Shown: positions 7,891-45,601 of the stretch, one piece after another
How positions within the stretch are numbered: the stretch's first letter is position 1
Layout: the number at the start of each line of letters is the position of its first letter
Assembly: GCA_024233435.1 (NCBI GenBank)
Contig: JACKPQ010000001.1
Coordinates: 260,829-324,828, forward strand
Reading direction: 5' to 3'
Source of the DNA: Chlamydiales bacterium
GTDB lineage: Bacteria; Chlamydiota; Chlamydiia; Chlamydiales; JACKPQ01
DNA: 64,000 nucleotides
Notes under the pieces: generated by a model
What the model saw: the letters and a program-made list of their open reading frames with translations, nothing else
Told to the model about the DNA's origin: nothing
Database searches by the model: none
Program-made: the position numbers and the translations under genes

Positions 7891-9357
7891 TCATTTGTAT
7901 TTGTTAGTAAGGTACTGGCGGTAGGGTTGTGAAGATAGTGGTGATCCAGTGACGATCTGACAAAGTTCAGGGGCGCTGTAGAGGCGGCCGTGGCTGTGAA
8001 TTTGCTCTTTAAGCCAGGCGGTGATGAAGCGCAGATCGCCTGAGGCGATGCGGCTGGTGTAGTCAGGGTAGGTTTTCGTGAAGGTGGCAAAAAATTGCGC
8101 TGCGTAGAGATTCCCTAGAGAATAGGTGGGGAAGTAGCCGACATTGCCGCATGCCCAGTGCATGTCTTGCAAACATCCCAGGGCGTCATTTGGGGGCGTG
8201 ATCCCAAGATAGTCTTGCATTTTAGCATTCCAGGCGTCGGGGAGGTCTTTCGGATCAAGGGTATTGGTGAGCAGCTCTTTTTCAAGCTCATAGCGCAGGA
8301 TGACGTGGAGTGTGTATGTAATCTCGTCAGCATGGACGCGGATTAGCGAGGGGTGCACGCGGTTGATGGTTTGGTAGAAGTTATCGAGGGAAAAGTTTTG
8401 CAGTTGGTTGAAAGTCTTTTGAAGTTTAGGGTAGGCATATTCCCAAAATGGGCGGCTTTGTCCAATGATGACTTCCCAAAAACGGGATTGTGATTCATGA
8501 ATGCCTAAGGAAATGGAGTCGCAAAGGGGAGTTCCTGCAAACTTTATTGGCAGGCCTCGCTCATAAAGACAATGGCCGCCCTCGTGCATGACAGCTGAGA
8601 TGTTTGGAATAGGTGTGTCTGTTGTAACATGGGTTGTCATCCGCACATCTGTTGGATCAAGGGTTGTGCAAAAAGGATGAGCTGACATGTCCAGGCGCGT
8701 GTGATGAGGCTCGAGTCCCATTTCTTGGATGAGATCAGCAACATAGCTCATTTGAGCCTCGATGGGATAGGGGCCTGGTGGGAGTGATGTGGGATTGGAT
8801 GTGCTGCTGCTTGTCAGTTCGATAAGAAAGGGTTTTAGCTCATTAAAAAGTGTGTCAATTTGCTCTGCAGTAGCATTTGGCTCATATTCATCTAAAAGAG
8901 CGTCGTAAGGGTGCTCCTTATAACCGAAATGCTCGGCCCTTTCTTGAGAGAGCTCAAAAATGGTTTTTAGGTGAGGACAAAAGGCTTTAAAGTTGTTGTT
9001 TTCACGCGCAATTTGCCAGGCGTGGACTGCTTCAGCACAGGTGGCTGTCCACTTCTCTACAAATCGTTTGGGAAGTTTGGTCGCTTTGTCAAAATCGCGC
9101 TTCCACAAGTTGGCAGCAGCACTTTCTTCTTTGCTTAGATCTTTACAAGCGAGTAGTTCACTTAGAGCCTGCTCAAATTGAGGAGAGATGCTTTCTTGAT
9201 GTCGAAGGCCTGCAATGTATTCTTTTTGGGCAGATCGCGCTTTGATCCCAGCTTGAGGCATATGGGTTTCTTGATCCCACCCAAGTAGAGCGCTGACCTG
9301 ATTTAGGATGTAGGCTGGGCGATAGGCTGCTTTTGTTTTCTCAAAGAGCTTGTGCAT
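7891..9357 (-). CDS. Carboxypeptidase Taq-type metallopeptidase (MEROPS M32)
   Basis: HEGGHCLYE zinc motif, HPF, DVRMTT and HESQSRFWE motifs typical of M32. 488 aa. Confidence 0.9.
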   Translation of the reverse strand: MHKLFEKTKAAYRPAYILNQVSALLGWDQETHMPQAGIKARSAQKEYIAGLRHQESISPQFEQALSELLACKDLSKEESAAANLWKRDFDKATKLPKRFVEKWTATCAEAVHAWQIARENNNFKAFCPHLKTIFELSQERAEHFGYKEHPYDALLDEYEPNATAEQIDTLFNELKPFLIELTSSSTSNPTSLPPGPYPIEAQMSYVADLIQEMGLEPHHTRLDMSAHPFCTTLDPTDVRMTTHVTTDTPIPNISAVMHEGGHCLYERGLPIKFAGTPLCDSISLGIHESQSRFWEVIIGQSRPFWEYAYPKLQKTFNQLQNFSLDNFYQTINRVHPSLIRVHADEITYTLHVILRYELEKELLTNTLDPKDLPDAWNAKMQDYLGITPPNDALGCLQDMHWACGNVGYFPTYSLGNLYAAQFFATFTKTYPDYTSRIASGDLRFITAWLKEQIHSHGRLYSAPELCQIVTGSPLSSQPYRQYLTNKYK

Positions 9358-35239: not shown

Positions 35240-36505
35240 TTAATGACTATAGCCGGTTGAGAGAAGGCGGCTACCATTGCAATCGAGGATCAGAAAGCGG
35301 TGAGCTTCTGTAGGCTGAGGCCATTGAAAACGCTCTAATTGTTTGTTGATGACTTCTTCTGCAATGGGGTGTTTTCTCGATTTGTTTCTCTTGCCTAGCT
35401 CGATTTTGTTTGGATGGAAGACAACAAGTGTGACTAGAGCATGATAATTTTCAGCTATGCGAATGATTTTTTCCCTCATCTCGCGTCGAAGATTTGTTGC
35501 ATCCCAGACGATTCGTTCTTTTTTACGCAGTTTTTCTTTTAGGCTCTCCATAGCGATGTTCAAAACTAGCGCGTTATTGCTTTGGTCTCCACGGTTTTTT
35601 GAGTGTAGCTCGCGTAGATCGTCTAGGGAAATTAAAGTGTGATCGGGAAGGGTTTGTTGAGCCCAAGTGCTTTTGCCTGATCCTCCTATTCCGCAGGTTA
35701 GAACTAACTCTGGATGGTGCTCTAAGTGCGGATATGCACGGGCAACAGCCTCATATGGAGTATGGATTAATCCATTTTCAAAGTCTTTAGCTCCATATCC
35801 TAATACATAGTCTATCAGCTCTGTAGAAGAGTTGGGCAACTCGTTTTTGATGGTGTCAGGCCATTCGCTATAAGGCCCTGCTTTTCCCCAAAGGCCATAC
35901 TCTTCAACATAGAGCCGGAACATATCGATATGCCCAACTTGCAGCTCTTTATCAATACATAAACGCCCGAGCATGTCAGCTTTTGTAAGGTAATACAGAA
36001 GTTCGAGGTCGGCTTGTCGAGCTAGCTTGTAGTACAAGGGCTTTCCAGCACCAGTAATGACTAGACGTTTTGGCACGATGTGGGCTGCTACAAGCTGCAG
36101 AATTTGATAGAGAACCCTATATGGGAGCCCACAATCTAGCAGGAGGGGCGCCAAATAAGAAGCTCCCATTTCCTCATGGTGTGGTGCCACAATACGCATC
36201 TGGCCATCTATTTCTTTTTCACGGGTTGTTAATGGTTTTGCGATATCATGAAAAGCTGTGGCCAGTATAAGAGCTAGCCGCCTCTGTGGCGTCAAAACAG
36301 CTTGTTCTTGGTTGAGAAGCTTGTAGAGTTCTTGAAGAACCCAGGAAGTGTGAACATAAACATCACCCTCAGCGTGCCAGTGAGGATCTTGAGATGTGTC
36401 TTTAAGCTTGCATAGCAAGGGGATAAAGGGAGAAAAGGTCTCTACAATTTCTTCTAAGGAAGGATTTTCACCATTGCTTATTCTATTTAATAAGATTTTA
36501 AGCAT
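35240..36505 (-). CDS. Bifunctional end-healing enzyme: N-terminal HD phosphoesterase plus C-terminal P-loop polynucleotide 5'-kinase (HD-Pnk architecture)
   Basis: HD domain signatures HWHAEGDVYVHT, FHDIAKP and HHEEMG. Kinase signatures GIGGSGKST, SLDDLR and WDATNLRREMR (T4 Pnk-like). ATGCTTAA overlap with the ligase gene. Confidence 0.8.
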   Translation of the reverse strand: MLKILLNRISNGENPSLEEIVETFSPFIPLLCKLKDTSQDPHWHAEGDVYVHTSWVLQELYKLLNQEQAVLTPQRRLALILATAFHDIAKPLTTREKEIDGQMRIVAPHHEEMGASYLAPLLLDCGLPYRVLYQILQLVAAHIVPKRLVITGAGKPLYYKLARQADLELLYYLTKADMLGRLCIDKELQVGHIDMFRLYVEEYGLWGKAGPYSEWPDTIKNELPNSSTELIDYVLGYGAKDFENGLIHTPYEAVARAYPHLEHHPELVLTCGIGGSGKSTWAQQTLPDHTLISLDDLRELHSKNRGDQSNNALVLNIAMESLKEKLRKKERIVWDATNLRREMREKIIRIAENYHALVTLVVFHPNKIELGKRNKSRKHPIAEEVINKQLERFQWPQPTEAHRFLILDCNGSRLLSTGYSH

Positions 36506-37145
36506 TTGGGTCCTTTAGCTTGTTAGGCACAATCTCCAACTCCATCCAGTGTTTGTTACTTTGTACATGGCCTTTTCGAACCCATTTAGCTACAGACTTA
36601 TGAAAATCACAATATGAAAATGCGTCTCGTATTCGCACAATGTATCCTTCGATCTCTTCGGTATTGAAATTCAAATTTCGAATTAGCTGCTCATTCCACA
36701 CCCCTTCAAAAAGAGTTCTTGGCGTCGGGATTCCTAAAAGCTGTGCCCATTCTAGGGTTTCATCCCAAGATAGGCAAATATTTTTCTCGTTCCAAACTGA
36801 AAATAAATAAAAGAACCCCTCCAAATTATCGTAGGCAATCGAATGTGTGGCATAAACGTTTTCACCACAGAGGCGCCAATTGTCTGGGATTTCTTGTTGA
36901 ATCCGGGCGTGGAGTTGTTTGGCTAGGCTTCTTGAAGGGTGATGCCCGCTGTCAATTGAGCGAGCATGCATTCCATCTGTGTAGAGGGTTGTATTTTCTC
37001 CATCGAGCTTTTCGGTAATGACAACTTGCTTATTTTTAAACTGATTTGTGTGAGTCATCTTGATGTCGTCATCGGTATTTCCAGGCGACCAGGGAAGATG
37101 GGGTGTTCGCGGGTATTTCCACCTCATATTGTGTTTGGGTTCCAT
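36498..37145 (-). CDS. ATP-dependent RNA/polynucleotide ligase, minimal nucleotidyltransferase domain (Rnl2-like superfamily)
   Basis: Covalent NTase motifs I EKLDGEN, III LCGENVYA, IIIa FYLFSVW, IV EGYIVR and V VAKWVRKGHV, with a KYPRTPHL N-terminus. I prefer start ATG 37145 (7 nt after the recD2 stop) over the ORF-track 37283. Confidence 0.8.
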   Translation of the reverse strand: MEPKHNMRWKYPRTPHLPWSPGNTDDDIKMTHTNQFKNKQVVITEKLDGENTTLYTDGMHARSIDSGHHPSRSLAKQLHARIQQEIPDNWRLCGENVYATHSIAYDNLEGFFYLFSVWNEKNICLSWDETLEWAQLLGIPTPRTLFEGVWNEQLIRNLNFNTEEIEGYIVRIRDAFSYCDFHKSVAKWVRKGHVQSNKHWMELEIVPNKLKDPNA

Positions 37146-37152
37146 ACCAACA

Positions 37153-39333
37153 TCACGCTGAATCAACAGAGGCGCTACAAGCAGACAGATCAAAAGAAAG
37201 CATAAGCTTGTCCATAAGACCTGTATGGCGCAAGAAGGCTTCGTTGTTTTTAATGGCAATGGCCAGGGCTTTTTTGGTGCCAATGAGAATCACGCGTTTT
37301 TTGCCACGGGTGATGCCGGTATAGAGCAAATTGCGGTAAAGAAGTTTGAAGTGGGAAGTATGCACTGGGATCACAACGCAGGGGCACTCGCTTCCTTGGT
37401 ACTTGTGAATTGAAACAGCGTAGGCTAAGACAAGCTCATCGAGCTCGGAAAAATCATAGGGGACTGTGAGCCCTTCAAAATCGACTTGGACCTCTTGATC
37501 AACCGTGTCAATTTTAACAATGCGTCCCACATCTCCATTGAAGACCTTTTTGTCATAGTTATTGCGGATTTGCATCACCTTATCCCCAAAATGAAAGCGG
37601 CGACCCATGCGCATAAGGGGGTTTTTGGAAGGGTTTAGCGTTGACTGAAGCACATGGTTGAGATTTTCTGTCCCAATAGGGCCTTTTTTCATAGGTGCAA
37701 GAACTTGAATATCATTAATAGCATCATAGCCATATTTTTCAGGAATACCTTTAGACACGAGGAAGTTGATTTTAGCTAAAATTTGCTCGGGCTCTTGTTC
37801 TTCGATAAAGGCAAAATCGCTTTTTTCTTCATATTCAAGATCAGGAAAGTAGCCTTTGTTGATGCTGTGGGCGCTGCGGATGATTTTTGAGCCTCGGGCT
37901 TGGCGAAAAATTTGAGTCAGACGTGTAACAGGGAGGACTTGTGACTCAATAATGTCTTTGAGAACCTTACCAGGGCCAACGCTTGGCAGCTGGTCAATGT
38001 CGCCAATAAGGATAACGCGCGCATTATCTGGGACAGCTTTTAGAAGGCTATACATCAACTGGGTGTCGATCATCGAAGCTTCGTCAATGATCAACAGGTC
38101 GCATGAAAGAGGATTTTCGCGGTTGCGTTTGAAGCCACCTTGTTGAAAATCAACCTCAAGAATGCTGTGAATGGTAAAGGCTTTACGACGGGTGATTTCG
38201 CTCATACGTTTAGCAGCGCGCCCTGTTGGAGCTGCAAGGATGACCTTGCTTGTAATTTTACTCAATATGGCAAGAATAGCTCGAGTGATCGTGCTCTTTC
38301 CTGTACCGGGGCCTCCAGTTAGAACATGCATCTTTTCACTGACGCTTTTTTTCACACCGTCGACCTGCTCGGGGGCTAAGTTAATGTAGAGTTTCTCCTG
38401 GACCCATTCGATGGCCTTTTCAATATCTAGATCACGGATAGAGCAGGGCTGGTCTGTTAAACGCTTGAGTTCGCGCACAATTCCAAGCTCTGCCATGAAA
38501 AGCGGCTTGATCCAAATTCGGCCTTGATCTTCAATAATGTGCTCATCTGTGACGAGTTTGGGCAAAGCATCTTCCACAAGCTTTGATTCAACTTCTAGCA
38601 TCTCGGTGACCCGCTCTAAAAGTTCATCTTTTGGAAAGCAGGTGTGGCCATCGCTACTGAGTTCCCAAAGCATATATTCAATGGCAGCCTCGATACGTAC
38701 AGGTGCATCTTTTGGAACGCCCAGTTTTTCGGCGATGCTATCTGCAGTTTTAAATCCCACGCCGTGAATTTCACGCGCTAGGCGATAGGGGTTATCTTGC
38801 ACCATATCGATGGCATCGTCGCTGTATTTACGATAAATTTTTTGCGCAAAAGAAGGGCTAATGCCATGGCCGCGCAAAAAGATAATCACATCGCGGATTG
38901 CTTTTTGCTCGCCCCAGCAATCTTGAATTTTTACAACGCGCTTTTCGCCAATGCCCTCAATTTCAAGGAGGCGGTAAGGAGTTTGGTCAATCACCTCCAA
39001 TGTTTTTACACCAAAGGCTTGCACGATTCTTTGGGCATAAACAGGCCCAATACCCTTCACCATTCCCGATTCAAGATATTTTTGAATTCCGATTACATCA
39101 GCTGGATAGTCGACCTCGTAGCTTGCAACTTCAAATTGCCTCCCAAAGGTAGGGTGGTGTTTCCATATGCCCTTTGCCCTTATCTTTTCGCCTGGGATGA
39201 TGCCTGGCATAGGGCCGACAACACAAGTGAGATCGGTGCATCGAGGCTGCTTTACGCGAGCTACGGTAAATCCTGTGTCCTCGCTAGAAAAAACAATTGA
39301 TTCAACAGAGCCAAAAAGATCATCCTGTTCCAT
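37153..39333 (-). CDS. recD: RecD2-type (RecD/YrrC-like) SF1B DNA helicase
   Basis: Walker A LTGGPGTGKST, LIIDEASMI and ILIGDIDQLPSVGPG. N-terminal HhH region and C-terminal SH3-like domain. First ATG at 39333 (the ORF opens at TTG 39357). Confidence 0.9.
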   Translation of the reverse strand: MEQDDLFGSVESIVFSSEDTGFTVARVKQPRCTDLTCVVGPMPGIIPGEKIRAKGIWKHHPTFGRQFEVASYEVDYPADVIGIQKYLESGMVKGIGPVYAQRIVQAFGVKTLEVIDQTPYRLLEIEGIGEKRVVKIQDCWGEQKAIRDVIIFLRGHGISPSFAQKIYRKYSDDAIDMVQDNPYRLAREIHGVGFKTADSIAEKLGVPKDAPVRIEAAIEYMLWELSSDGHTCFPKDELLERVTEMLEVESKLVEDALPKLVTDEHIIEDQGRIWIKPLFMAELGIVRELKRLTDQPCSIRDLDIEKAIEWVQEKLYINLAPEQVDGVKKSVSEKMHVLTGGPGTGKSTITRAILAILSKITSKVILAAPTGRAAKRMSEITRRKAFTIHSILEVDFQQGGFKRNRENPLSCDLLIIDEASMIDTQLMYSLLKAVPDNARVILIGDIDQLPSVGPGKVLKDIIESQVLPVTRLTQIFRQARGSKIIRSAHSINKGYFPDLEYEEKSDFAFIEEQEPEQILAKINFLVSKGIPEKYGYDAINDIQVLAPMKKGPIGTENLNHVLQSTLNPSKNPLMRMGRRFHFGDKVMQIRNNYDKKVFNGDVGRIVKIDTVDQEVQVDFEGLTVPYDFSELDELVLAYAVSIHKYQGSECPCVVIPVHTSHFKLLYRNLLYTGITRGKKRVILIGTKKALAIAIKNNEAFLRHTGLMDKLMLSFDLSACSASVDSA

Positions 39334-39402
39334 GGGCGTTACTGTACATGAGCGCAAAGCCTATTGCAATAAAAAGTGATTACTGGCAGAATAAATGAAT
39401 AT

Positions 39403-39475
39403 TCCGGATTAGCTCAGTTGGTAGAGCAACGGACTGTTAATCCGTTTGTCGCTGGTTCGAGTCCAGCATCCGGAG
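39403..39475 (+). tRNA. tRNA-Asn (anticodon GUU)
   Basis: Hand-folded cloverleaf: acceptor TCCGGAT/ATCCGGA, D arm GCTC/GAGC, anticodon arm ACGGA-CTGTTAA-TCCGT, T arm GCTGG-TTCGAGT-CCAGC, discriminator G. CCA is not encoded. Confidence 0.95.
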
Positions 39476-39480
39476 ACTTC

Positions 39481-39505
39481 AAGCCCCTCGCCCGAGGGGC
39501 TTTTT
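39481..39505 (+). terminator. Rho-independent terminator after tRNA-Asn
   Basis: aagcccctcg pairs with cgaggggctt and is followed by TTTTT. Confidence 0.75.
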
Positions 39506-39629
39506 ATAAAAATTTTATTATGAGTGCTTTGCTGTTTTTTAGCGTATCTTGACTTGTCAGCATAATTCTATAAATGAACAGATCGATCATCCAATAGCCG
39601 CACATAAAGAATGGTGCATGAACTTTTAG

Positions 39630-39821
39630 CTACTTTCTCTTTAACTTTGGATTTTCTGTTAACAAACCAAAATCGTCAATCTTATAGCTGTCATACAACT
39701 TACGATAATGGGCTCCATTAGGAACATCCTCCGAGGCCTGCCGAACAGACTTATTAGCAGCCTTTTTCTTCGGCTTCTTATTCTCTTCACGGAAATAGGG
39801 TTTTCGGTGCGACCTGCTCAT
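39630..39821 (-). CDS. Small, highly basic hypothetical protein, 63 aa
   Basis: The ORF is MSRSHRKPYFREENKKPKKKAANKSVRQASEDVPNGAHYRKLYDSYKIDDFGLLTENPKLKRK. A diverged paralog lies at 41197-41445. Confidence 0.5.
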   Translation of the reverse strand: MSRSHRKPYFREENKKPKKKAANKSVRQASEDVPNGAHYRKLYDSYKIDDFGLLTENPKLKRK

Positions 39822-40040
39822 TTAAACCTCTTTTTAAATTGCTATTTGTAGGGTCACAAAGCTTTGAAGGGTCTTTTTTTATTTTTAATTCAGACCTGTG
39901 ATGTTAATATAAAATGCTATGCAAATGAAGTGAGGAAGCCGTATTCTTGCAGAATGGGCATAAGAACGGTTGCAATCCATTCAGCAAATCACTTATGATC
40001 GTCCAAAACAACTTTAGAAGGCATGCTAAAAAAGAAGCAA
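39688..40040. repeat. Direct repeat copy 1 (small basic gene plus its upstream region)
   Basis: Aligns by hand with 41264-41495. The 99-bp core 39924-40022 matches 41377-41475 at 92/99. Copy 1 carries an extra 120 bp (39804-39923) that is absent from copy 2. Confidence 0.8.
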
Positions 40041-40143
40041 AGAGCTCAATCCAGGCAGTTGTCTTATTTAAACAAGAAGTAGAAGATGAATCAAATTTGC
40101 TGCCGTAGAAAATATATATTTTAGTTTTAACAGGAGTTTTTTT

Positions 40144-41091
40144 ATGATGAGCCTAGAAACACAGCAAGAAAGAGTCAGAATTACGGCCTACTTTCAAGGT
40201 GAGACAGAAAATCAGAAGTCTTCTCTAACACTTGGCCGTGTAATTCTCCAACTTCCAGATTCTAAAACCAGAATCACCCTTCTACTCCCAAAGGAATCCG
40301 TTCACGAGAGATCTGAACCTCTCAAATTTTGTGTGAAAAGAGAGGGGAATTGGAGGGAAGAACAACTTGAAGGGCTCCGACTCACCGTAGAAAAAGCAAA
40401 TCGCTTTGGTATGACCATTTATGTTTTCAAACATGGTGAAAATGTAGGCCCGATGATCCGACATCAAGATGGTACTACCTGCCAGCAACCGACAGTAAAA
40501 CGCTCTGAAAGTAAAGTGCAGGTTACGCGACCTGCGAAAATCGAACCGGGAGCTCATTATCGTTTGGAGATTACTTCCACAAACGGATCCAGTGCTGAAG
40601 CCAATCTAATAAAGATTGAAGGACCAATTCAAAAATCAAAAACTATGGGTGATGATTCAAAACTTTTCCGGAACGTGTATCCATCCATTATGGATTTACT
40701 CCGCCAGAAAGTTTTGGATGCTGAGAATCTCGTAAAGAAGTCCGTAGACTACGCCGATACTATTACCTTTAAATCAAGATTTAATGAAGAATTAGCAAAA
40801 CAATCTATCCTTACTGCAATAAACGGACTACACAGCGAAAAACGTGGTCAACTTGAGAAAATGTGCGAAACAGATAACTCAACACAAAATATTCCACTTG
40901 GCAGAAAGGCAGTCAGCCTTTTTCTTCTAGCCCTAGAAAGGACTGATATTGGACAGTTGCTGCAAGATCAGCTAGAGGCTGCGGTTGGTAAGGATTACCC
41001 TATTCTACTTGGAATTGTCTACAATGATATATTAGTACCTTTTATTGATGAAATCAAATTCATGGCTAGACAATATGACAACGAAATCTAA
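40144..41091 (+). CDS. Hypothetical protein, 315 aa, bracketed by the direct repeats
   Basis: Long ORF with AGGAG upstream. The N-terminal half looks beta-rich and the C-terminal half helical. No motif recognised. Confidence 0.6.
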   Translation: MMSLETQQERVRITAYFQGETENQKSSLTLGRVILQLPDSKTRITLLLPKESVHERSEPLKFCVKREGNWREEQLEGLRLTVEKANRFGMTIYVFKHGENVGPMIRHQDGTTCQQPTVKRSESKVQVTRPAKIEPGAHYRLEITSTNGSSAEANLIKIEGPIQKSKTMGDDSKLFRNVYPSIMDLLRQKVLDAENLVKKSVDYADTITFKSRFNEELAKQSILTAINGLHSEKRGQLEKMCETDNSTQNIPLGRKAVSLFLLALERTDIGQLLQDQLEAAVGKDYPILLGIVYNDILVPFIDEIKFMARQYDNEI

Positions 41092-41196
41092 AGGTTGCCC
41101 GCAAAGCAAACCTTATGATGATTTCTTTTGGGCTACTTTTTGTCCGGGCATGACACTAGGGTGAGGGGTTGTATAGATAGTCGAAACTTGTATGCA

Positions 41197-41445
41197 CTAT
41201 AGAGAGTAAAGGAAATAGCTGCTGCAATTTCCTTGGAGCTCCCAATTCTTTTCATGGGTATGGCTGTCATGCAACTTACGATAGTGGATGCCATCATGAA
41301 CATCCTCCGAGGCCTGCCGAACAGACTTATTAGCAGCTTTTCTTGATTTCTTGTTCTCTTCATGAAAGTAGGGCTTAATGAAGTGAGAAAGCCGTTTTCT
41401 TGCAGAATGGGCATAAGAACGGTTGCACCCCATTGAGCAAATCAC
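41197..41445 (-). pseudogene. Diverged or rearranged paralog of the small basic protein gene
   Basis: ...HFIKPYFHEENKKSRKAANKSVRQASEDVHDGIHYRKLHDS... matches the 39630-39821 product. The N-terminus is fused to upstream repeat sequence (GTG start) and the C-terminus is unrelated. Which copy is ancestral is unclear. Confidence 0.4.
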
Positions 41446-41495
41446 TTATGATCGCCCAAAGCAACTTTAGAAGGCGTGAAAATCAAGGAATCAAA
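41264..41495. repeat. Direct repeat copy 2
   Basis: See copy 1. The repeat runs into the first codons of the MazG-like ORF. Copy 1 retains only a 19-codon stub of that start (ATGCTAAAAAAGAAG... at 40023). Confidence 0.8.
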
Positions 41496-41496
41496 A

Positions 41497-41880
41497 ATGT
41501 GTAAATTTAGACCTTTTTTCTCGATGTTTGTTTGTCTAGTGGCCTTTTCGGTAAAAGTAGTAGGGGCAGAGAGCCACACGTATCAAGATCAACGGAAGCA
41601 GCTGGATTACGATGAAGAATATTTTGAAATCAACGAGGGATTTGAAAAGCTCCGTCATATTTTGCTGCATTTGATGAAATCAACTGGTAAGATAGCAGCT
41701 TATTGTGAGATAAAGGAGCATGGAAGAGAAGTCAGTGAAACCCAACTTCTTGATGAGGCGCTTCCAGATTTGTATATGCATGCTTTGCAGATTGCTAATT
41801 TGTTTGAGTTGGATCTAGGCGCCAAGTATGAAGAGCGAATTGCCAGTAACATTGCCCGCTTTGGAGGTGTGTCGAAATGA
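41497..41880 (+). CDS. MazG-like all-alpha NTP-pyrophosphohydrolase-fold protein with an N-terminal signal or anchor (weak call)
   Basis: LLHLMKSTGKIAAYCE...DEALPDLYMHALQIANLFELDLGAKYEERIASNIAR aligns by eye with MazG-like helices, but the EExxE metal motif is not conserved. Hydrophobic N-terminus MCKFRPFFSMFVCLVAFSVKVVGA. Confidence 0.4.
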   Translation: MCKFRPFFSMFVCLVAFSVKVVGAESHTYQDQRKQLDYDEEYFEINEGFEKLRHILLHLMKSTGKIAAYCEIKEHGREVSETQLLDEALPDLYMHALQIANLFELDLGAKYEERIASNIARFGGVSK

Positions 41881-41908
41881 GCTTAGTCCGTGATTTTAAG
41901 AAGGTTTT

Positions 41909-43309
41909 ATGAACATAGTTAAATCCAAGCGCTCGATCAGAATCTTTACCCTGACAATGATTAACATCGCTGCTACTTGCAGCATTCAGAATTGGCCTTT
42001 GACGGCCGAGTACGGCTTTTCTTCCCTATTTTTCTCTTTGCTCAGCGCTTTGGTTTTCTTTATTCCTGTCTCTTTGGTGTCTGCAGAGTTGGCTACAGGC
42101 TGGCCAGAGCGTGGAGGCGTTTTCACATGGGTCAAAGAAGCTATGGGCCACAGGATGGGGTTTTTAGCGGTTTGGCTTCAATGGGCAGAAAACGTTATCT
42201 GGTACCCGACTATTTTATCCTTTATCGGGGCTGCTATTGCTTATAGCTTTAATCCTGCACTAGCAAACAACAATGTCTATATGGGAATTGTGATTATCGC
42301 AGCTTTTTGGGGTGCTACGCTGATGAATTTATGCGGCATGAAAATATCGGGGCTTATTAGCTCTGTTGGTGTTATTGTTGGTACGATCATCCCAGGGGCG
42401 CTTATTATTTGCTTAGGACTCATATGGCTATTTGGAAGCCAACCCCTGCAAATCGAGCTGAGCTGGGATGCGCTTTTACCAGATTTAAGCTCTCCCTATC
42501 AGCTTTCTTTGCTAGTGGGAGTATTAACTGGTTTTACTGGGATGGAAATGTCCGCTGTGCATGCCCGTGATGTCATCAACCCCCAGAAAAATTATCCACG
42601 AGCGATTTTCCTATCAGCACTCATTGTTCTCTTTTTGTTTGTTTTAGGAACACTTTCTATTGCATTTGTTATTCCACAGAAGGAAATCAGCCTTGTTGGA
42701 GGGGCGCTGGAGGCGCTTTCCCATTTTATGCGTCGTTATGGACTTGGCTCATCGGTTCCCATTCTAGCTATTCTTGTTGCTTTTGGAGCGTTAGGCAGTA
42801 TGAGCACTTGGGCAGCGGGGCCAATTAAAGGGCTATTGGCAGCTGCGCAAAGCGGGGAATTCCCTCCGATTTTGCACCGTGTTAATAAAAATGACATGCC
42901 AGTAGCGATGATGATTATGCAAGGCGTCATCGTGTCTCTTTTGTCACTTGTTTTTGTCTTGATGCGCGATGTCAATATTTCATTTTGGATTCTTTTGGTT
43001 TTGATGTCGCAGCTGTATTTGATTATGTATGTGTTGATGTTTGTTGCAGCGATTATTTTGCGCTACAAAAGGGCGAATGTGCAACGGGCTTATACAATAC
43101 CTGGAGGGCGGCTTGGCATGTGGTTTGTCGCAGGTGTAGGGGCTTTAGGTTCACTAGCTGCGCTGATCATTAGCTTTTTTCCTCCACGTCAGATCAATAC
43201 AGGTAATGTTCTTTTCTATGAGCTATTTTTGCTGATTGGCATCGTGACGGTCTGCACGATACCGTTTGTGATTCTGCTCTTTAAGAAACCCAGTTGGGAC
43301 AAACCCTAG
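41909..43309 (+). CDS. gadC: APC-family glutamate:GABA antiporter-like permease
   Basis: 12 TM. Shares GGVFTWV, TIPGG and SFFPP segments and overall collinearity with E. coli GadC as I recall it. Lacks the ~35-aa C-terminal plug. Confidence 0.8.
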   Translation: MNIVKSKRSIRIFTLTMINIAATCSIQNWPLTAEYGFSSLFFSLLSALVFFIPVSLVSAELATGWPERGGVFTWVKEAMGHRMGFLAVWLQWAENVIWYPTILSFIGAAIAYSFNPALANNNVYMGIVIIAAFWGATLMNLCGMKISGLISSVGVIVGTIIPGALIICLGLIWLFGSQPLQIELSWDALLPDLSSPYQLSLLVGVLTGFTGMEMSAVHARDVINPQKNYPRAIFLSALIVLFLFVLGTLSIAFVIPQKEISLVGGALEALSHFMRRYGLGSSVPILAILVAFGALGSMSTWAAGPIKGLLAAAQSGEFPPILHRVNKNDMPVAMMIMQGVIVSLLSLVFVLMRDVNISFWILLVLMSQLYLIMYVLMFVAAIILRYKRANVQRAYTIPGGRLGMWFVAGVGALGSLAALIISFFPPRQINTGNVLFYELFLLIGIVTVCTIPFVILLFKKPSWDKP

Positions 43310-43547
43310 CGCGTGGCATTGGCTTTGAATATAGCTGTTTTATGTCATTTATAATTAGGCGTATATAGATTTATAACTCATAAATGAGCTATAACATGAG
43401 TTATATAAGAGAGGTTTATGCATCATGAATTGGAATTGGAAATTACCTAGTTAGCCAACTTTTTGCTATGGTCCATCCAAGGTTGCCGATTTAGAAAAGC
43501 AATTTCATATGGAAATTGGCACCACTTTTGCATATCTCAAAATCAGC

Positions 43548-44177
43548 TCAATCTAGAATGCTGACAGCTCCTGTGTGCATGTCGTAGTATCCTGCGTAGA
43601 CTTTGAGGCTGCCTTTTGATACAAGGTTTGCAATCGCCTTTGTTTTTAAGAGGGTATTTTTCATGTTGATGGCGTTTGTTTTAATGGCTGCTTCTAAAAG
43701 TGGGCGGGAGCGTTCTTTTTCGACTTTTTGCACGGCAGGCTCTATGAGTTTTGCAATTGTGGGGATGGTTTCTGTTGTATCTTTGATCACAGCATCTACT
43801 GCGCCGCAGTTTTCGTGTCCAAGGACAAGAATGATCGATGAGTGCAAGTGAAGAGCTGAGTAGTTAATGCTTTGTAGTTCAATAGGGCCTATCACATTGC
43901 CGGCAACGCGTACGACGAACAGATCGCCAATTCCTTGGTCAAAAATAATTTCTGGAGCAACGCGGGAGTCAGCGCAGCTGACGATAATGGCAAAGGGCTC
44001 TTGGCTAGCTGTGAGTGCTTGGCGGCTTTCAGCTGTTCGATTGGGATGCTCGAGAGAGTCTTGGACATAGCGTTTATTCCCTTCCATTAACTGCTCTAAT
44101 GGAGTCTGTGCGAATAATCCAAAACTAACTAATCCAATAAGAATTATCCTCATATTTTTTTTAATAATTATTTTCAT
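43548..44177 (-). CDS. Beta-class carbonic anhydrase with a signal peptide
   Basis: CADSRV and HENCGAV zinc-ligand motifs. N-terminus MKIIIKKNMRIILIGLVSFGLFAQ. ATG 44177 (the ORF opens at TTG 44189). Confidence 0.85.
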   Translation of the reverse strand: MKIIIKKNMRIILIGLVSFGLFAQTPLEQLMEGNKRYVQDSLEHPNRTAESRQALTASQEPFAIIVSCADSRVAPEIIFDQGIGDLFVVRVAGNVIGPIELQSINYSALHLHSSIILVLGHENCGAVDAVIKDTTETIPTIAKLIEPAVQKVEKERSRPLLEAAIKTNAINMKNTLLKTKAIANLVSKGSLKVYAGYYDMHTGAVSILD

Positions 44178-44218
44178 ATAAATTGTCAAATTGTCTATGA
44201 ATGGAATAAAGGGGTTTT

Positions 44219-45601
44219 ATGCAGAAAAAAGATGATTCAGATAAAGGGCATGCCAGTACATATAGCTCTCGTTATTTTACCAAAGACATTCCAAAGCATA
44301 AAATGCCTGTGCAGAGCATGCCTGCTAATGCAGTCTATCAATTGATTCATGACGAGTTGAATATGGATTGTAATCCAGCTCTTAATTTGGCAAGCTTTTG
44401 CACGACGTGGATGGAGCCAGAAGCGCAGCAAATTTATAAGGAAAATGTTCACAAAAATTTTATCGATCACGACCAGTATCCTCAAACAGAGGTGATTCAT
44501 AAGCGGTGCATCAATATGCTTGCTCATTTGTTTAATGCCCCAGATGATTGCAAAACGATTGGGTCTGCAACGATTGGTTCATCAGAGGCGATTATGCTTG
44601 CTCTTTTAGGCCACAAATGGACCTGGAAAAAGCGGCGCGAGCAAGAGGGAAAAGCAACGGACAAGCCTAACATTATTTTTGGTGCAGATGTTCATATTTG
44701 TTGGGATAAGTTTGCCAAGTATTTTGATGTCGAAATGAGAATTATTCCGATGGAGAAAGATTGCTATGTCATTTCAGCAGAAAAGGTGAAACCTCTCATT
44801 GATGAAAATACAATTTGTGTAGGAGCAATTCTTGGAACAACGTTTACTGGGCAGGCTGATCCTATTGAAGAGATCAATAACTTGCTGTTAAAAGTGAAAA
44901 AAGAAAAAGGCTGGGATATTCCCGTTCATGTTGACGGTGCAAGTGGAGGCTTTGTCACTCCGTTTACACAACCAGATCTTCTTTGGGATTTCCGCCTTGA
45001 GCAGGTCAAATCCATCAATGTTTCTGGTCATAAATTTGGTCTGGTTTATCCTGGGCTTGGCTGGGTTTTATGGAAAGATGAAAAGGATTTTCCAGAGGAT
45101 TTGATTTTTCATGTTAATTACCTGGGTGGTTCGATGCCGACATACACGCTCAATTTTTCTCGCAATAGCGTTGGAATATATGGGCAGTATTACAATTTCT
45201 TGCGCCTTGGAAAAGAAGGGTATACCCGCATCATGAACAACTGTCTGGAAAACGCTCAGTACTTAGCAAAGAAGCTTTCGGAATTGAAAGAGTTTCACAT
45301 GATCAACGAAAGCCAAATGCTGCCCATTGTAGCTATCCGTTTGACTGACGATGTAAAAAATTACACAGTTTTTGATCTTTCTCATAAGTTGCGTGAGCGA
45401 GGATGGGTCATCTCTGCATATACCTTGCCTGCTAATGCTCAAGATACGGCCATCATGCGTATTGTTGTTCGCGAGCATTTAAGCCGTGATATGGTAGAGA
45501 TTCTTTTTGCCGATATCCAAAATGCGATTAAAGCACTTGAAACCGGACAGAAAACAACTGGTAATGGAAGCTCTCCTCGAAAAGGCCAGCATGTTTGTTG
45601 A
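44219..45601 (+). CDS. gadB: Glutamate decarboxylase (PLP-dependent, group II)
   Basis: 460 aa with the PLP-lysine motif SGHKFGLVYPGLGW and N-terminal ...MPANAVYQLIHDELNMDCNPALNLASFCTTWMEPEA, typical of GAD. Confidence 0.9.
   Translation: MQKKDDSDKGHASTYSSRYFTKDIPKHKMPVQSMPANAVYQLIHDELNMDCNPALNLASFCTTWMEPEAQQIYKENVHKNFIDHDQYPQTEVIHKRCINMLAHLFNAPDDCKTIGSATIGSSEAIMLALLGHKWTWKKRREQEGKATDKPNIIFGADVHICWDKFAKYFDVEMRIIPMEKDCYVISAEKVKPLIDENTICVGAILGTTFTGQADPIEEINNLLLKVKKEKGWDIPVHVDGASGGFVTPFTQPDLLWDFRLEQVKSINVSGHKFGLVYPGLGWVLWKDEKDFPEDLIFHVNYLGGSMPTYTLNFSRNSVGIYGQYYNFLRLGKEGYTRIMNNCLENAQYLAKKLSELKEFHMINESQMLPIVAIRLTDDVKNYTVFDLSHKLRERGWVISAYTLPANAQDTAIMRIVVREHLSRDMVEILFADIQNAIKALETGQKTTGNGSSPRKGQHVC

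Follow-up and report, generated by a model that had tools for sequence, protein, structure and literature searches.

A chlamydial glutamate/GABA locus with a β-carbonic anhydrase gene between gadC and gadB in one narrow lineage

Introduction

Does a carbonic anhydrase (CA) gene that lies between the genes of a glutamate/γ-aminobutyric acid (GABA) antiporter and a glutamate decarboxylase (GAD) belong to one acid-resistance module with them? The question is raised by a 64,000-nucleotide (nt) stretch of a Chlamydiales metagenome-assembled genome (MAG), hereafter the window, whose proteins match NCBI entries tagged H7A40_. Between positions 41497 and 45601, the window carries a small MazG-like open reading frame (ORF) and gadC on the plus strand, a β-class CA gene on the minus strand, and gadB on the plus strand. 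Two Logan assemblies (L001 and L002) have an identical gene layout. A preliminary description of the window regarded these four genes as an acid-resistance cluster, in which an exported CA handles the CO2 that GadB releases. An ORF check bears out the presence of all four genes, with their content and coordinates (Table 1).

Bacteria of the Chlamydiaceae use the arginine/agmatine system AaxABC (PMC2720952). A GAD system with its antiporter has been described in MAGs of the Simkaniaceae ('Ca. Andegerimia', Commun Biol 2021; PMC8382752), where it is interpreted in terms of acid tolerance. Among open-access papers, we find none in which a CA is connected with gadBC or in which gadC of Chlamydiae is discussed.

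Our analysis indicates that the locus is a known type of system with an unusual, lineage-restricted gene order. It is likely a conventional chlamydial glutamate/GABA system, in which the CA gene lies between gadC and gadB in a narrow lineage only and CA plays a role independent of GAD. A functional coupling between CA and GAD is unproven and unlikely.

Results

Genomic context of the CA gene

Elsewhere in the Chlamydiota, gadC and gadB form a simple unit of two genes. L043, L044 (from a Simkania sp.), and L045 represent three further chlamydial genomes, in which the two genes are contiguous and co-directional, are separated by a 3-nt gap or overlap slightly, and are not accompanied by a CA gene. 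In addition, gadB adjoins gadC in the metagenome loci L029 and L030. The closest GadB outside the sister genome described below (79% identical; L042) has a fumarase gene as its neighbor, and gadC and a CA gene are both missing there. In the window, the stop codon of gadC and the start codon of gadB are 909 nt apart, with the opposite-strand CA gene in between, and we count gadC and gadB as a pair at this distance.

The CA gene, in turn, is found in other surroundings. CA orthologs that are 56–65% identical to the window protein and carry the same hydrophobic leader occur in four different neighborhoods (L025, L027, L046, and L047), none of which includes gadB or gadC at a distance of up to 8 kb. 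The CA gene is conserved widely among chlamydiae and has other neighbors in every genome sampled. In total, the CA linkage is absent from the 6 gadB contexts and the 4 CA contexts sampled in other chlamydiae. A conserved four-gene module is rejected by this synteny sampling. The proposal that CA and the small ORF are members of a GAD module does not hold up, since gadC–gadB is a plain two-gene unit elsewhere and both other genes have other neighborhoods.

The pairing of the CA gene with gadB is limited to the window species, its strain variant L038, and one sister genome (L024). L038, a metagenome contig of 1.75 kb, keeps the window layout. In the sister genome, GadB and CA are 91% and 83% identical to the window proteins, respectively, and the gene order GroEL...DUF748-DUF8085-PTP-gadB<>CA (PTP, tyrosine-phosphatase-domain protein) shares the divergent gadB<>CA pair. 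However, the sister genome lacks gadC at the locus, and the small ORF is reduced to a remnant of 58 amino acids (aa). The window and the sister genome resemble each other up to the CA stop codon and no further. The CA–GAD juxtaposition is confined to the window species, L038, and one sister genome, and a meaning beyond chance is not confirmed by the gene orders compared here.

Glutamate decarboxylase GadB

GadB scores 652.5 bits against the NCBIfam equivalog model TIGR01788, ~270 bits above the cut-off of 380.4 bits. The S-x-H-K motif with the lysine that binds pyridoxal phosphate (PLP) reads NVSGHKFGLVYPG in the translation and aligns to the same motif of GAD1. In a PDB search, the best solved relative is Arabidopsis GAD1 (3hbx) with 524 bits, and E. 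coli GadB (1pmm) reaches 401 bits. Chlamydial homologs are numerous and 67–79% identical to the window GadB, with those of Simkaniaceae and a Simkania sp. included; GADs of Patescibacteria are also among the close homologs. Chlamydial GadB does not carry the calmodulin-binding extension of plant GAD, and E. coli GadA/GadB score ~400 bits.

The C-terminus of GadB ends in GQHVC. A His residue is located within the last 6 residues in 99 of the 120 homologs (P0173–P0292), typically as KH(R/P)PIC. In E. coli GadB, the C-terminal tail with His465 autoinhibits the enzyme at neutral pH. The conserved, basic, His-containing tail of the GadB clade, with its terminal Cys, appears reminiscent of this autoinhibitory tail.

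Antiporter GadC

GadC matches the Pfam family AA_permease_2 with 233 bits. Its top NCBIfam models are TIGR03813 (495.7 bits; cut-off 650) and NF053662 (465.2 bits; cut-off 640), both sub-threshold, and its score against TIGR00910 (301 bits) is below the cut-off of 673.5 bits. The two best-matching models describe proteins of about 470–480 aa. Among solved structures, E. coli GadC (4dji) matches it best, with an E-value of 7e-66. Taken together, the equivalog score of GadB and the best matches of GadC support the earlier assignment of a GadB/GadC glutamate-dependent system to a chlamydia outside the Chlamydiaceae.

The alignment with 4dji covers residues 19–464 of 511 and leaves only ~10 query residues, so the C-plug (about residues 477–511) is absent. 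The chlamydial GadCs that adjoin gadB are 453–472 aa long and score 533–551 bits, with the same family ranking, and are likewise sub-threshold. The missing C-plug and the sub-threshold score are normal for a plug-less subfamily (453–479 aa) and are no specialty of the locus. The preliminary description was right that the C-plug is absent.

The window GadC is 46–49% identical to the chlamydial GadCs that adjoin gadB (L043–L045), which are 68–77% identical to one another. Over the same genomes, GadB tracks normally: the window protein is 67–75% identical to the others, and the others are 72–81% identical to one another. In an exhaustive search of 1.8 billion representatives, the closest relatives of GadC come from a Chlamydiota MAG (55%), Spartobacteria (51%), and Chlamydiae (47%). 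With the nearest representatives in Chlamydiota and Spartobacteria, there is no sign that gadC recently came from beyond the phylum or its relatives, and this reading is rejected. The split of the operon possibly loosened or changed the constraint on GadC, which would account for its faster divergence. Glutamate/GABA exchange by the window GadC at acid pH is predicted.

The same two proteins might serve mainly energy conservation, through electrogenic exchange and proton-motive force, or GABA/glutamate metabolism on host glutamate, and not survival in strong acid. In some lactic acid bacteria, glutamate/GABA exchange together with decarboxylation generates a proton-motive force. In accordance with such a role, some chlamydial gadB genes have no adjacent gadC (L042 beside fumarase and the sister genome L024), GadB is nearer to plant GAD1 than to the acid-specialized E. 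coli GadB, and a plug-less GadC may, from what is known of E. coli GadC, work nearer to neutral pH. However, the His-containing C-terminal tail resembles the pH-gating tail of the E. coli enzyme and fits activation by acid, the tight gadC–gadB operon of other Chlamydiota is the classical acid-resistance layout, and neither gabT nor gabD is seen in the window. We consider a mainly energetic or metabolic role unlikely.

Carbonic anhydrase

CA scores 118.3 bits against Pfam Pro_CA, with a gathering threshold of 25.7 bits. The zinc-ligand motifs CxDxR and HxxC are intact, and the segments SCADSRV and GHENCG are invariant across orthologs. Of the solved structures, that of M. tuberculosis Rv3588c (2a5v/1ym3) is the nearest, with an E-value of 8e-31.

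The N-terminus of CA, MRIILIGLVSFGLFA/QTP, is signal-like and lies directly ahead of the first conserved helix. Of the close homologs, 116 extend far enough at the N-terminus for a comparison, and 107 of these show a hydrophobic 10-aa window (mean Kyte–Doolittle value of at least 2.0) ahead of this helix. Many orthologs contain S/L-x-A cleavage contexts, and two are lipoprotein-like. The export-type N-terminus noted in the preliminary description is therefore a family trait, and CA is predicted to be exported.

The start codon of the CA gene is the ATG at 44153, which is conserved in the sister genome and L038; the ATG at 44177 and an alternative start at 44189 are not conserved. Therefore, the divergent spacer between the CA gene and gadB is 65 nt, not ~41 nt, a value that rested on the ATG at 44177.

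In the divergent spacer, the minus strand carries TTGACA (44189–44184), a 17-nt spacer, and TATTAA (44166–44161), with 7 nt between the end of TATTAA and the ATG of CA. TTGACT-17-TATCAA is the counterpart at this place in the sister genome. The plus strand carries AAAGGGG just ahead of the gadB ATG. A scan for consensus promoters and terminators gives counts no higher than in shuffled sequence, and both TTGACA-17-TATTAA and AAAGGGG are putative, unverified sites, obtained from reading the sequence alone. The convergent spacer between gadC and the CA gene contains a 10-nt perfect inverted repeat (43372–43381/43396–43405), and the scan reports no consensus terminator in its 238 nt. Neither spacer has an Rfam match to a regulatory RNA or riboswitch, even at E-values up to 1.

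Relationship between CA and GAD

In the reading of the preliminary description, CA would be co-regulated with gadB from the 65-nt region and would process the CO2 from GadB in the periplasm, as the third part of an acid module. The CA gene is located between gadC and gadB, and its short spacer is conserved in the sister genome. In addition, the N-terminus of CA is of the export type, GadB releases CO2 by established enzymology, and a role of CA in pH homeostasis has been suggested earlier for Waddlia (PMC2878342). However, none of the other gadB or CA contexts sampled from chlamydiae shows the linkage, the sister genome keeps the CA<>gadB pair but has lost the adjacent gadC, and the promoter scan finds no excess over shuffled sequence.

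The chemistry is likewise unfavorable. The GadB reaction yields GABA and CO2 only and consumes a proton. The pKa of the CO2/HCO3- couple is about 6.1–6.4; the hydration of CO2 is unfavorable below pH ~6 and releases a proton above it. From this established chemistry we infer that a CA in the periplasm, with CO2 from GadB as its sole supply, is unable to raise the periplasmic pH, because hydration is unfavorable on one side of this value and acidifying on the other.

The preliminary description compared the locus with H. pylori. In this organism, urease supplies NH3, and the CO2/HCO3- couple then buffers the periplasm. Acid acclimation by urease is supported by its periplasmic α-CA (Marcus et al. 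2005, cited in PMC9062700). The window is alike in that an exported CA (predicted) is encoded beside a cytoplasmic enzyme that releases CO2 and consumes a proton. However, the window CA is of the β-class and not the α-class, its partner yields no NH3, and there is no conserved linkage. We judge that the analogy fails on chemistry: buffering of the H. pylori type needs an exported NH3 base, GAD exports no such base, and CO2 hydration would be unfavorable below pH ~6.1. In accordance, no urease or deiminase genes are present among the window ORFs scanned. A functional coupling of CA to GAD is, in our assessment, improbable.

A related idea is that CA was recruited into the GAD locus in the window lineage, to be co-regulated with gadB from the 65-nt region in a three-component acid module. 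A possible logic of such a recruitment is that, with CA outside the cytoplasm, the CO2 from GadB would not be rehydrated there and the consumed proton would not be given back; the hydration and dehydration of CO2 would shift to the periplasm or the vacuole. We regard recruitment as quite improbable.

An exported CA could act in other ways. It could use up protons, given host bicarbonate, or supply carboxylases with bicarbonate, and either role would be independent of GAD. The window contains an AccA gene at 57714–58676. In Waddlia chondrophila, CA and a carbonate permease have been proposed to serve pH homeostasis in phagocytes, with no link to GAD proposed (PMC2878342). The Waddliaceae ortholog of CA (P0101) is 59–60% identical to the window protein, and no carbonate permease is found in the window. 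A GAD-independent role fits both the wide conservation of CA in unrelated contexts and the Waddlia proposal.

Small MazG-like ORF

The small ORF precedes gadC at a distance of 28 nt and has the same orientation. Its N-terminus contains a signal-like segment, MCKFRPFFSMFVCLVAFSVKVVGA/E, which is followed by an all-α domain. The family comprises 52 homologs of about 125 aa, several of which are named 'NTP pyrophosphatase (non-canonical NTP hydrolase)' by JGI (NTP, nucleoside triphosphate). The invariant core of the family is FEKLRHxLLHLxKxxGK...YCExKEHG...PDLxxHALQxAN...KYxxR, and the signal-like N-terminus is common to its members. The export-type N-terminus that had been attributed to the small ORF thus finds support in the family alignment, which suggests export or membrane anchoring.

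Pfam, NCBIfam, and single-sequence PDB searches with the small ORF give no match, and none of 27 family members has a Pfam match, MazG/PRA-PH included. In a profile search of PDB, 6 of the 7 matches come from the MazG-like superfamily, at non-significant E-values of 0.09–0.26. The AlphaFold2 (AF2) model has a predicted local distance difference test (pLDDT) score of 86. In a Foldseek search of this model against PDB, the top 14 matches are MazG-like proteins, with probabilities up to 0.98 and E-values of only 0.2–0.4. The leading ones are DCTPP1/RS21-C6, YpjD, and DR2231, with probabilities of 0.96–0.98, and the best matches have target-normalized TM-scores of 0.63–0.72. The MazG-like identity claimed in the preliminary description is moderately supported at the level of the fold by AF2 and Foldseek, despite the lack of a Pfam match.

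Canonical NTPase chemistry is doubtful. In a weak profile alignment with 5ie9, the small ORF has MKSTGK in place of the EEMGE motif, and only the D (D91) of the second acidic motif is invariant in the family. NTPase activity appears doubtful because the first acidic motif is replaced and the invariant residues are rich in His, Cys, and Lys. Like DCTPP1/RS21-C6, B. subtilis YpjD, and DR2231, the small ORF has a four-helix all-α fold, and its (E)xxLxDLxxxxLxxAN helix matches the EExxD helix of these pyrophosphohydrolases. Unlike them, it has no Pfam match and carries an N-terminal signal or anchor; in the weak alignment, EExGE becomes (M/V)K(S/T)xGK, and the invariant residues are His/Cys/Lys-rich.

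The family is found at 21 genome loci (L003–L023) in Chlamydiota, Babeliales, Legionellales, and DPANN archaea. No GAD or CA gene is near any of 23 family loci, which are these 21 and those of two further relatives. In relatives P0003 and P0005, from chlamydia-like contigs (L048 and L050), the small ORF lies just upstream of xseA-xseB-NAD kinase. The small ORF is no GAD component; it adjoins gadC only in the window lineage.

Variable segment and neighboring genes

The tRNA-Asn gene flanks a variable segment in both the window and L024, with different genes between the tRNA gene and the CA gene. The gene content of the segment (39478–43547) differs between the window and the sister genome, and the tRNA-Asn-bordered segment behaves like a small variable island. 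In the window (39402–43547), it holds gadC and the small ORF together with two ORFs of 63 and 315 aa. The segment of L024 (8607–11840) holds a cyclase gene, the small-ORF remnant, two genes with Fic domains, one with a DUF4172 domain, and an ORF of 123 aa whose function is unknown; the last four genes are found at the position of gadC (8660–10632).

The 315-aa ORF (40144–41091), which is unannotated, lies between the copies of a direct repeat of ~0.35 kb (39683–40034/41259–41487), whose two blocks of 83 and 111 nt show 89% identity. The second copy ends 10 nt before the start of the small ORF, so the same upstream sequence precedes both genes. Because of the repeat, similar short ORFs are present on the minus strand at 39630–39821 and 41197–41445.

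After the split of the operon, gadC and possibly gadB might drift toward loss of function in the window lineage, in line with the loss of gadC and the truncated small ORF in the sister genome, the anomalous divergence of the window GadC, and the position of the locus next to a tRNA-linked variable segment with repeats, but this is very improbable, given that all three ORFs are intact and of full length, GadB is 91% identical between both genomes and far above its cut-off, and L038 keeps the layout with a gadC product that is 100% identical over the 148 residues covered.

Downstream of gadB, the tyrosine-phosphatase-domain gene and the DUF8085 gene (45659–47202) may be co-transcribed with gadB; they are not part of the GAD function. 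The tyrosine-phosphatase-domain protein, which faintly matches the type III effector XopH, is only 53% identical to its sister ortholog, compared with 83–91% for the flanking genes, and is a candidate fast-evolving effector. On the minus strand beside RecD2, an RNA ligase-domain gene (36498–37283) and an AAA_33/KTI12-like kinase-domain gene (35240–36505) may form an RNA repair pair. No GadE/GadX/GadW-type regulators and no aax genes are seen in the window.

Table 1 Features of the glutamate/GABA locus and its surroundings in the window.
Feature	Position	Strand	Evidence or remark
tRNA-Asn(GTT), left edge of variable segment	39402–39477	+	ARAGORN and Rfam
Small ORF, 127 aa (134 aa from GTG 41476)	41497–41880	+	Homolog alignment, AF2 model, Foldseek
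GadC-type amino-acid antiporter (APC superfamily), 466 aa, without C-plug	41909–43309	+	AA_permease_2, GadC models, 4dji alignment
Convergent gadC/CA spacer, 238 nt, between stop codons, AT-rich	43310–43547	.	Sequence reading
β-class CA, 201 aa from conserved ATG, Sec-type signal-like N-terminus	43548–44153	-	Pro_CA, ortholog alignment, start conservation
Divergent CA/gadB spacer, 65 nt	44154–44218	.	Sequence reading and alignment with sister
Glutamate decarboxylase GadB, 460 aa	44219–45601	+	TIGR01788, SGHK motif, GQHVC tail
Tyrosine-phosphatase-domain protein	45659–46663	+	Directly downstream of gadB, conserved there in sister
DUF8085 protein	46660–47202	+	Follows phosphatase gene, conserved in sister

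Discussion

In the reading that we prefer, a conventional glutamate/GABA system with an independent CA, GadC would import glutamate, cytoplasmic GadB would decarboxylate it, using one proton and releasing CO2, and GadC would export the GABA. The ancestral state would be a two-gene gadC–gadB operon, as still present in other Chlamydiota. A local rearrangement beside the tRNA-Asn-linked variable segment would have left the opposite-oriented CA gene between gadC and gadB, probably in the lineage of the window genome and the sister genome. Parted from gadC, gadB would need its own promoter. CA would have the general periplasmic task of interconverting CO2 and bicarbonate, which would serve the supply of bicarbonate or the handling of pH independently of GAD, and the small MazG-like protein would represent a separate family from host-associated microbes.

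Four points weigh against this reading. First, given its unusual divergence, the substrate range of the window GadC appears less certain. Second, the 65-nt spacer and the divergent CA<>gadB pair are conserved in both genomes that have them, and shared regulation is conceivable. Third, the inspection for second copies of CA or gadC is confined to the window. Fourth, the independent contexts sampled number only six for gadB and four for CA.

The locus resembles the E. coli acid resistance system AR2 (GadA/GadB and GadC) in that it encodes a PLP-dependent decarboxylase with a His residue near the C-terminus and an APC antiporter best matched by 4dji. It differs from AR2 in that GadC lacks the C-plug, GadB is closer to plant GAD1, and gadB and gadC are not co-transcribed. 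Compared with the GAD system of the Simkaniaceae MAGs (PMC8382752), the window has a CA gene between gadC and gadB and a more divergent GadC. AaxABC likewise combines a decarboxylase and an antiporter in the same phylum, but acts on another substrate. The AaxABC decarboxylase is a pyruvoyl-dependent enzyme, and the system has a dedicated porin.

Rv3588c (CanB; 1ym3 and 2a5v) of M. tuberculosis is the closest solved structure to the chlamydial CA (110 bits), with CxDxR/HxxC conserved. In contrast to Rv3588c, the first 17–20 residues of the chlamydial CA before the core form a hydrophobic signal-like leader, and a few orthologs have a lipobox-like Cys.

Little rests on the locus itself, and the juxtaposition of CA and GAD would matter only if co-regulation were demonstrated. 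The small-ORF family, which is unannotated and conserved, has a MazG-like fold and a signal-like N-terminus, and is found so far in host-dependent lineages, is maybe the more useful by-product of this analysis. For the phylum, a glutamate-dependent system, and not AaxABC, is common among environmental Chlamydiota, as already noted for the Simkaniaceae. In addition, most environmental Chlamydiota carry a β-CA with an export-type N-terminus, which could be relevant to how they obtain bicarbonate or to the pH of the vacuole in which they live.

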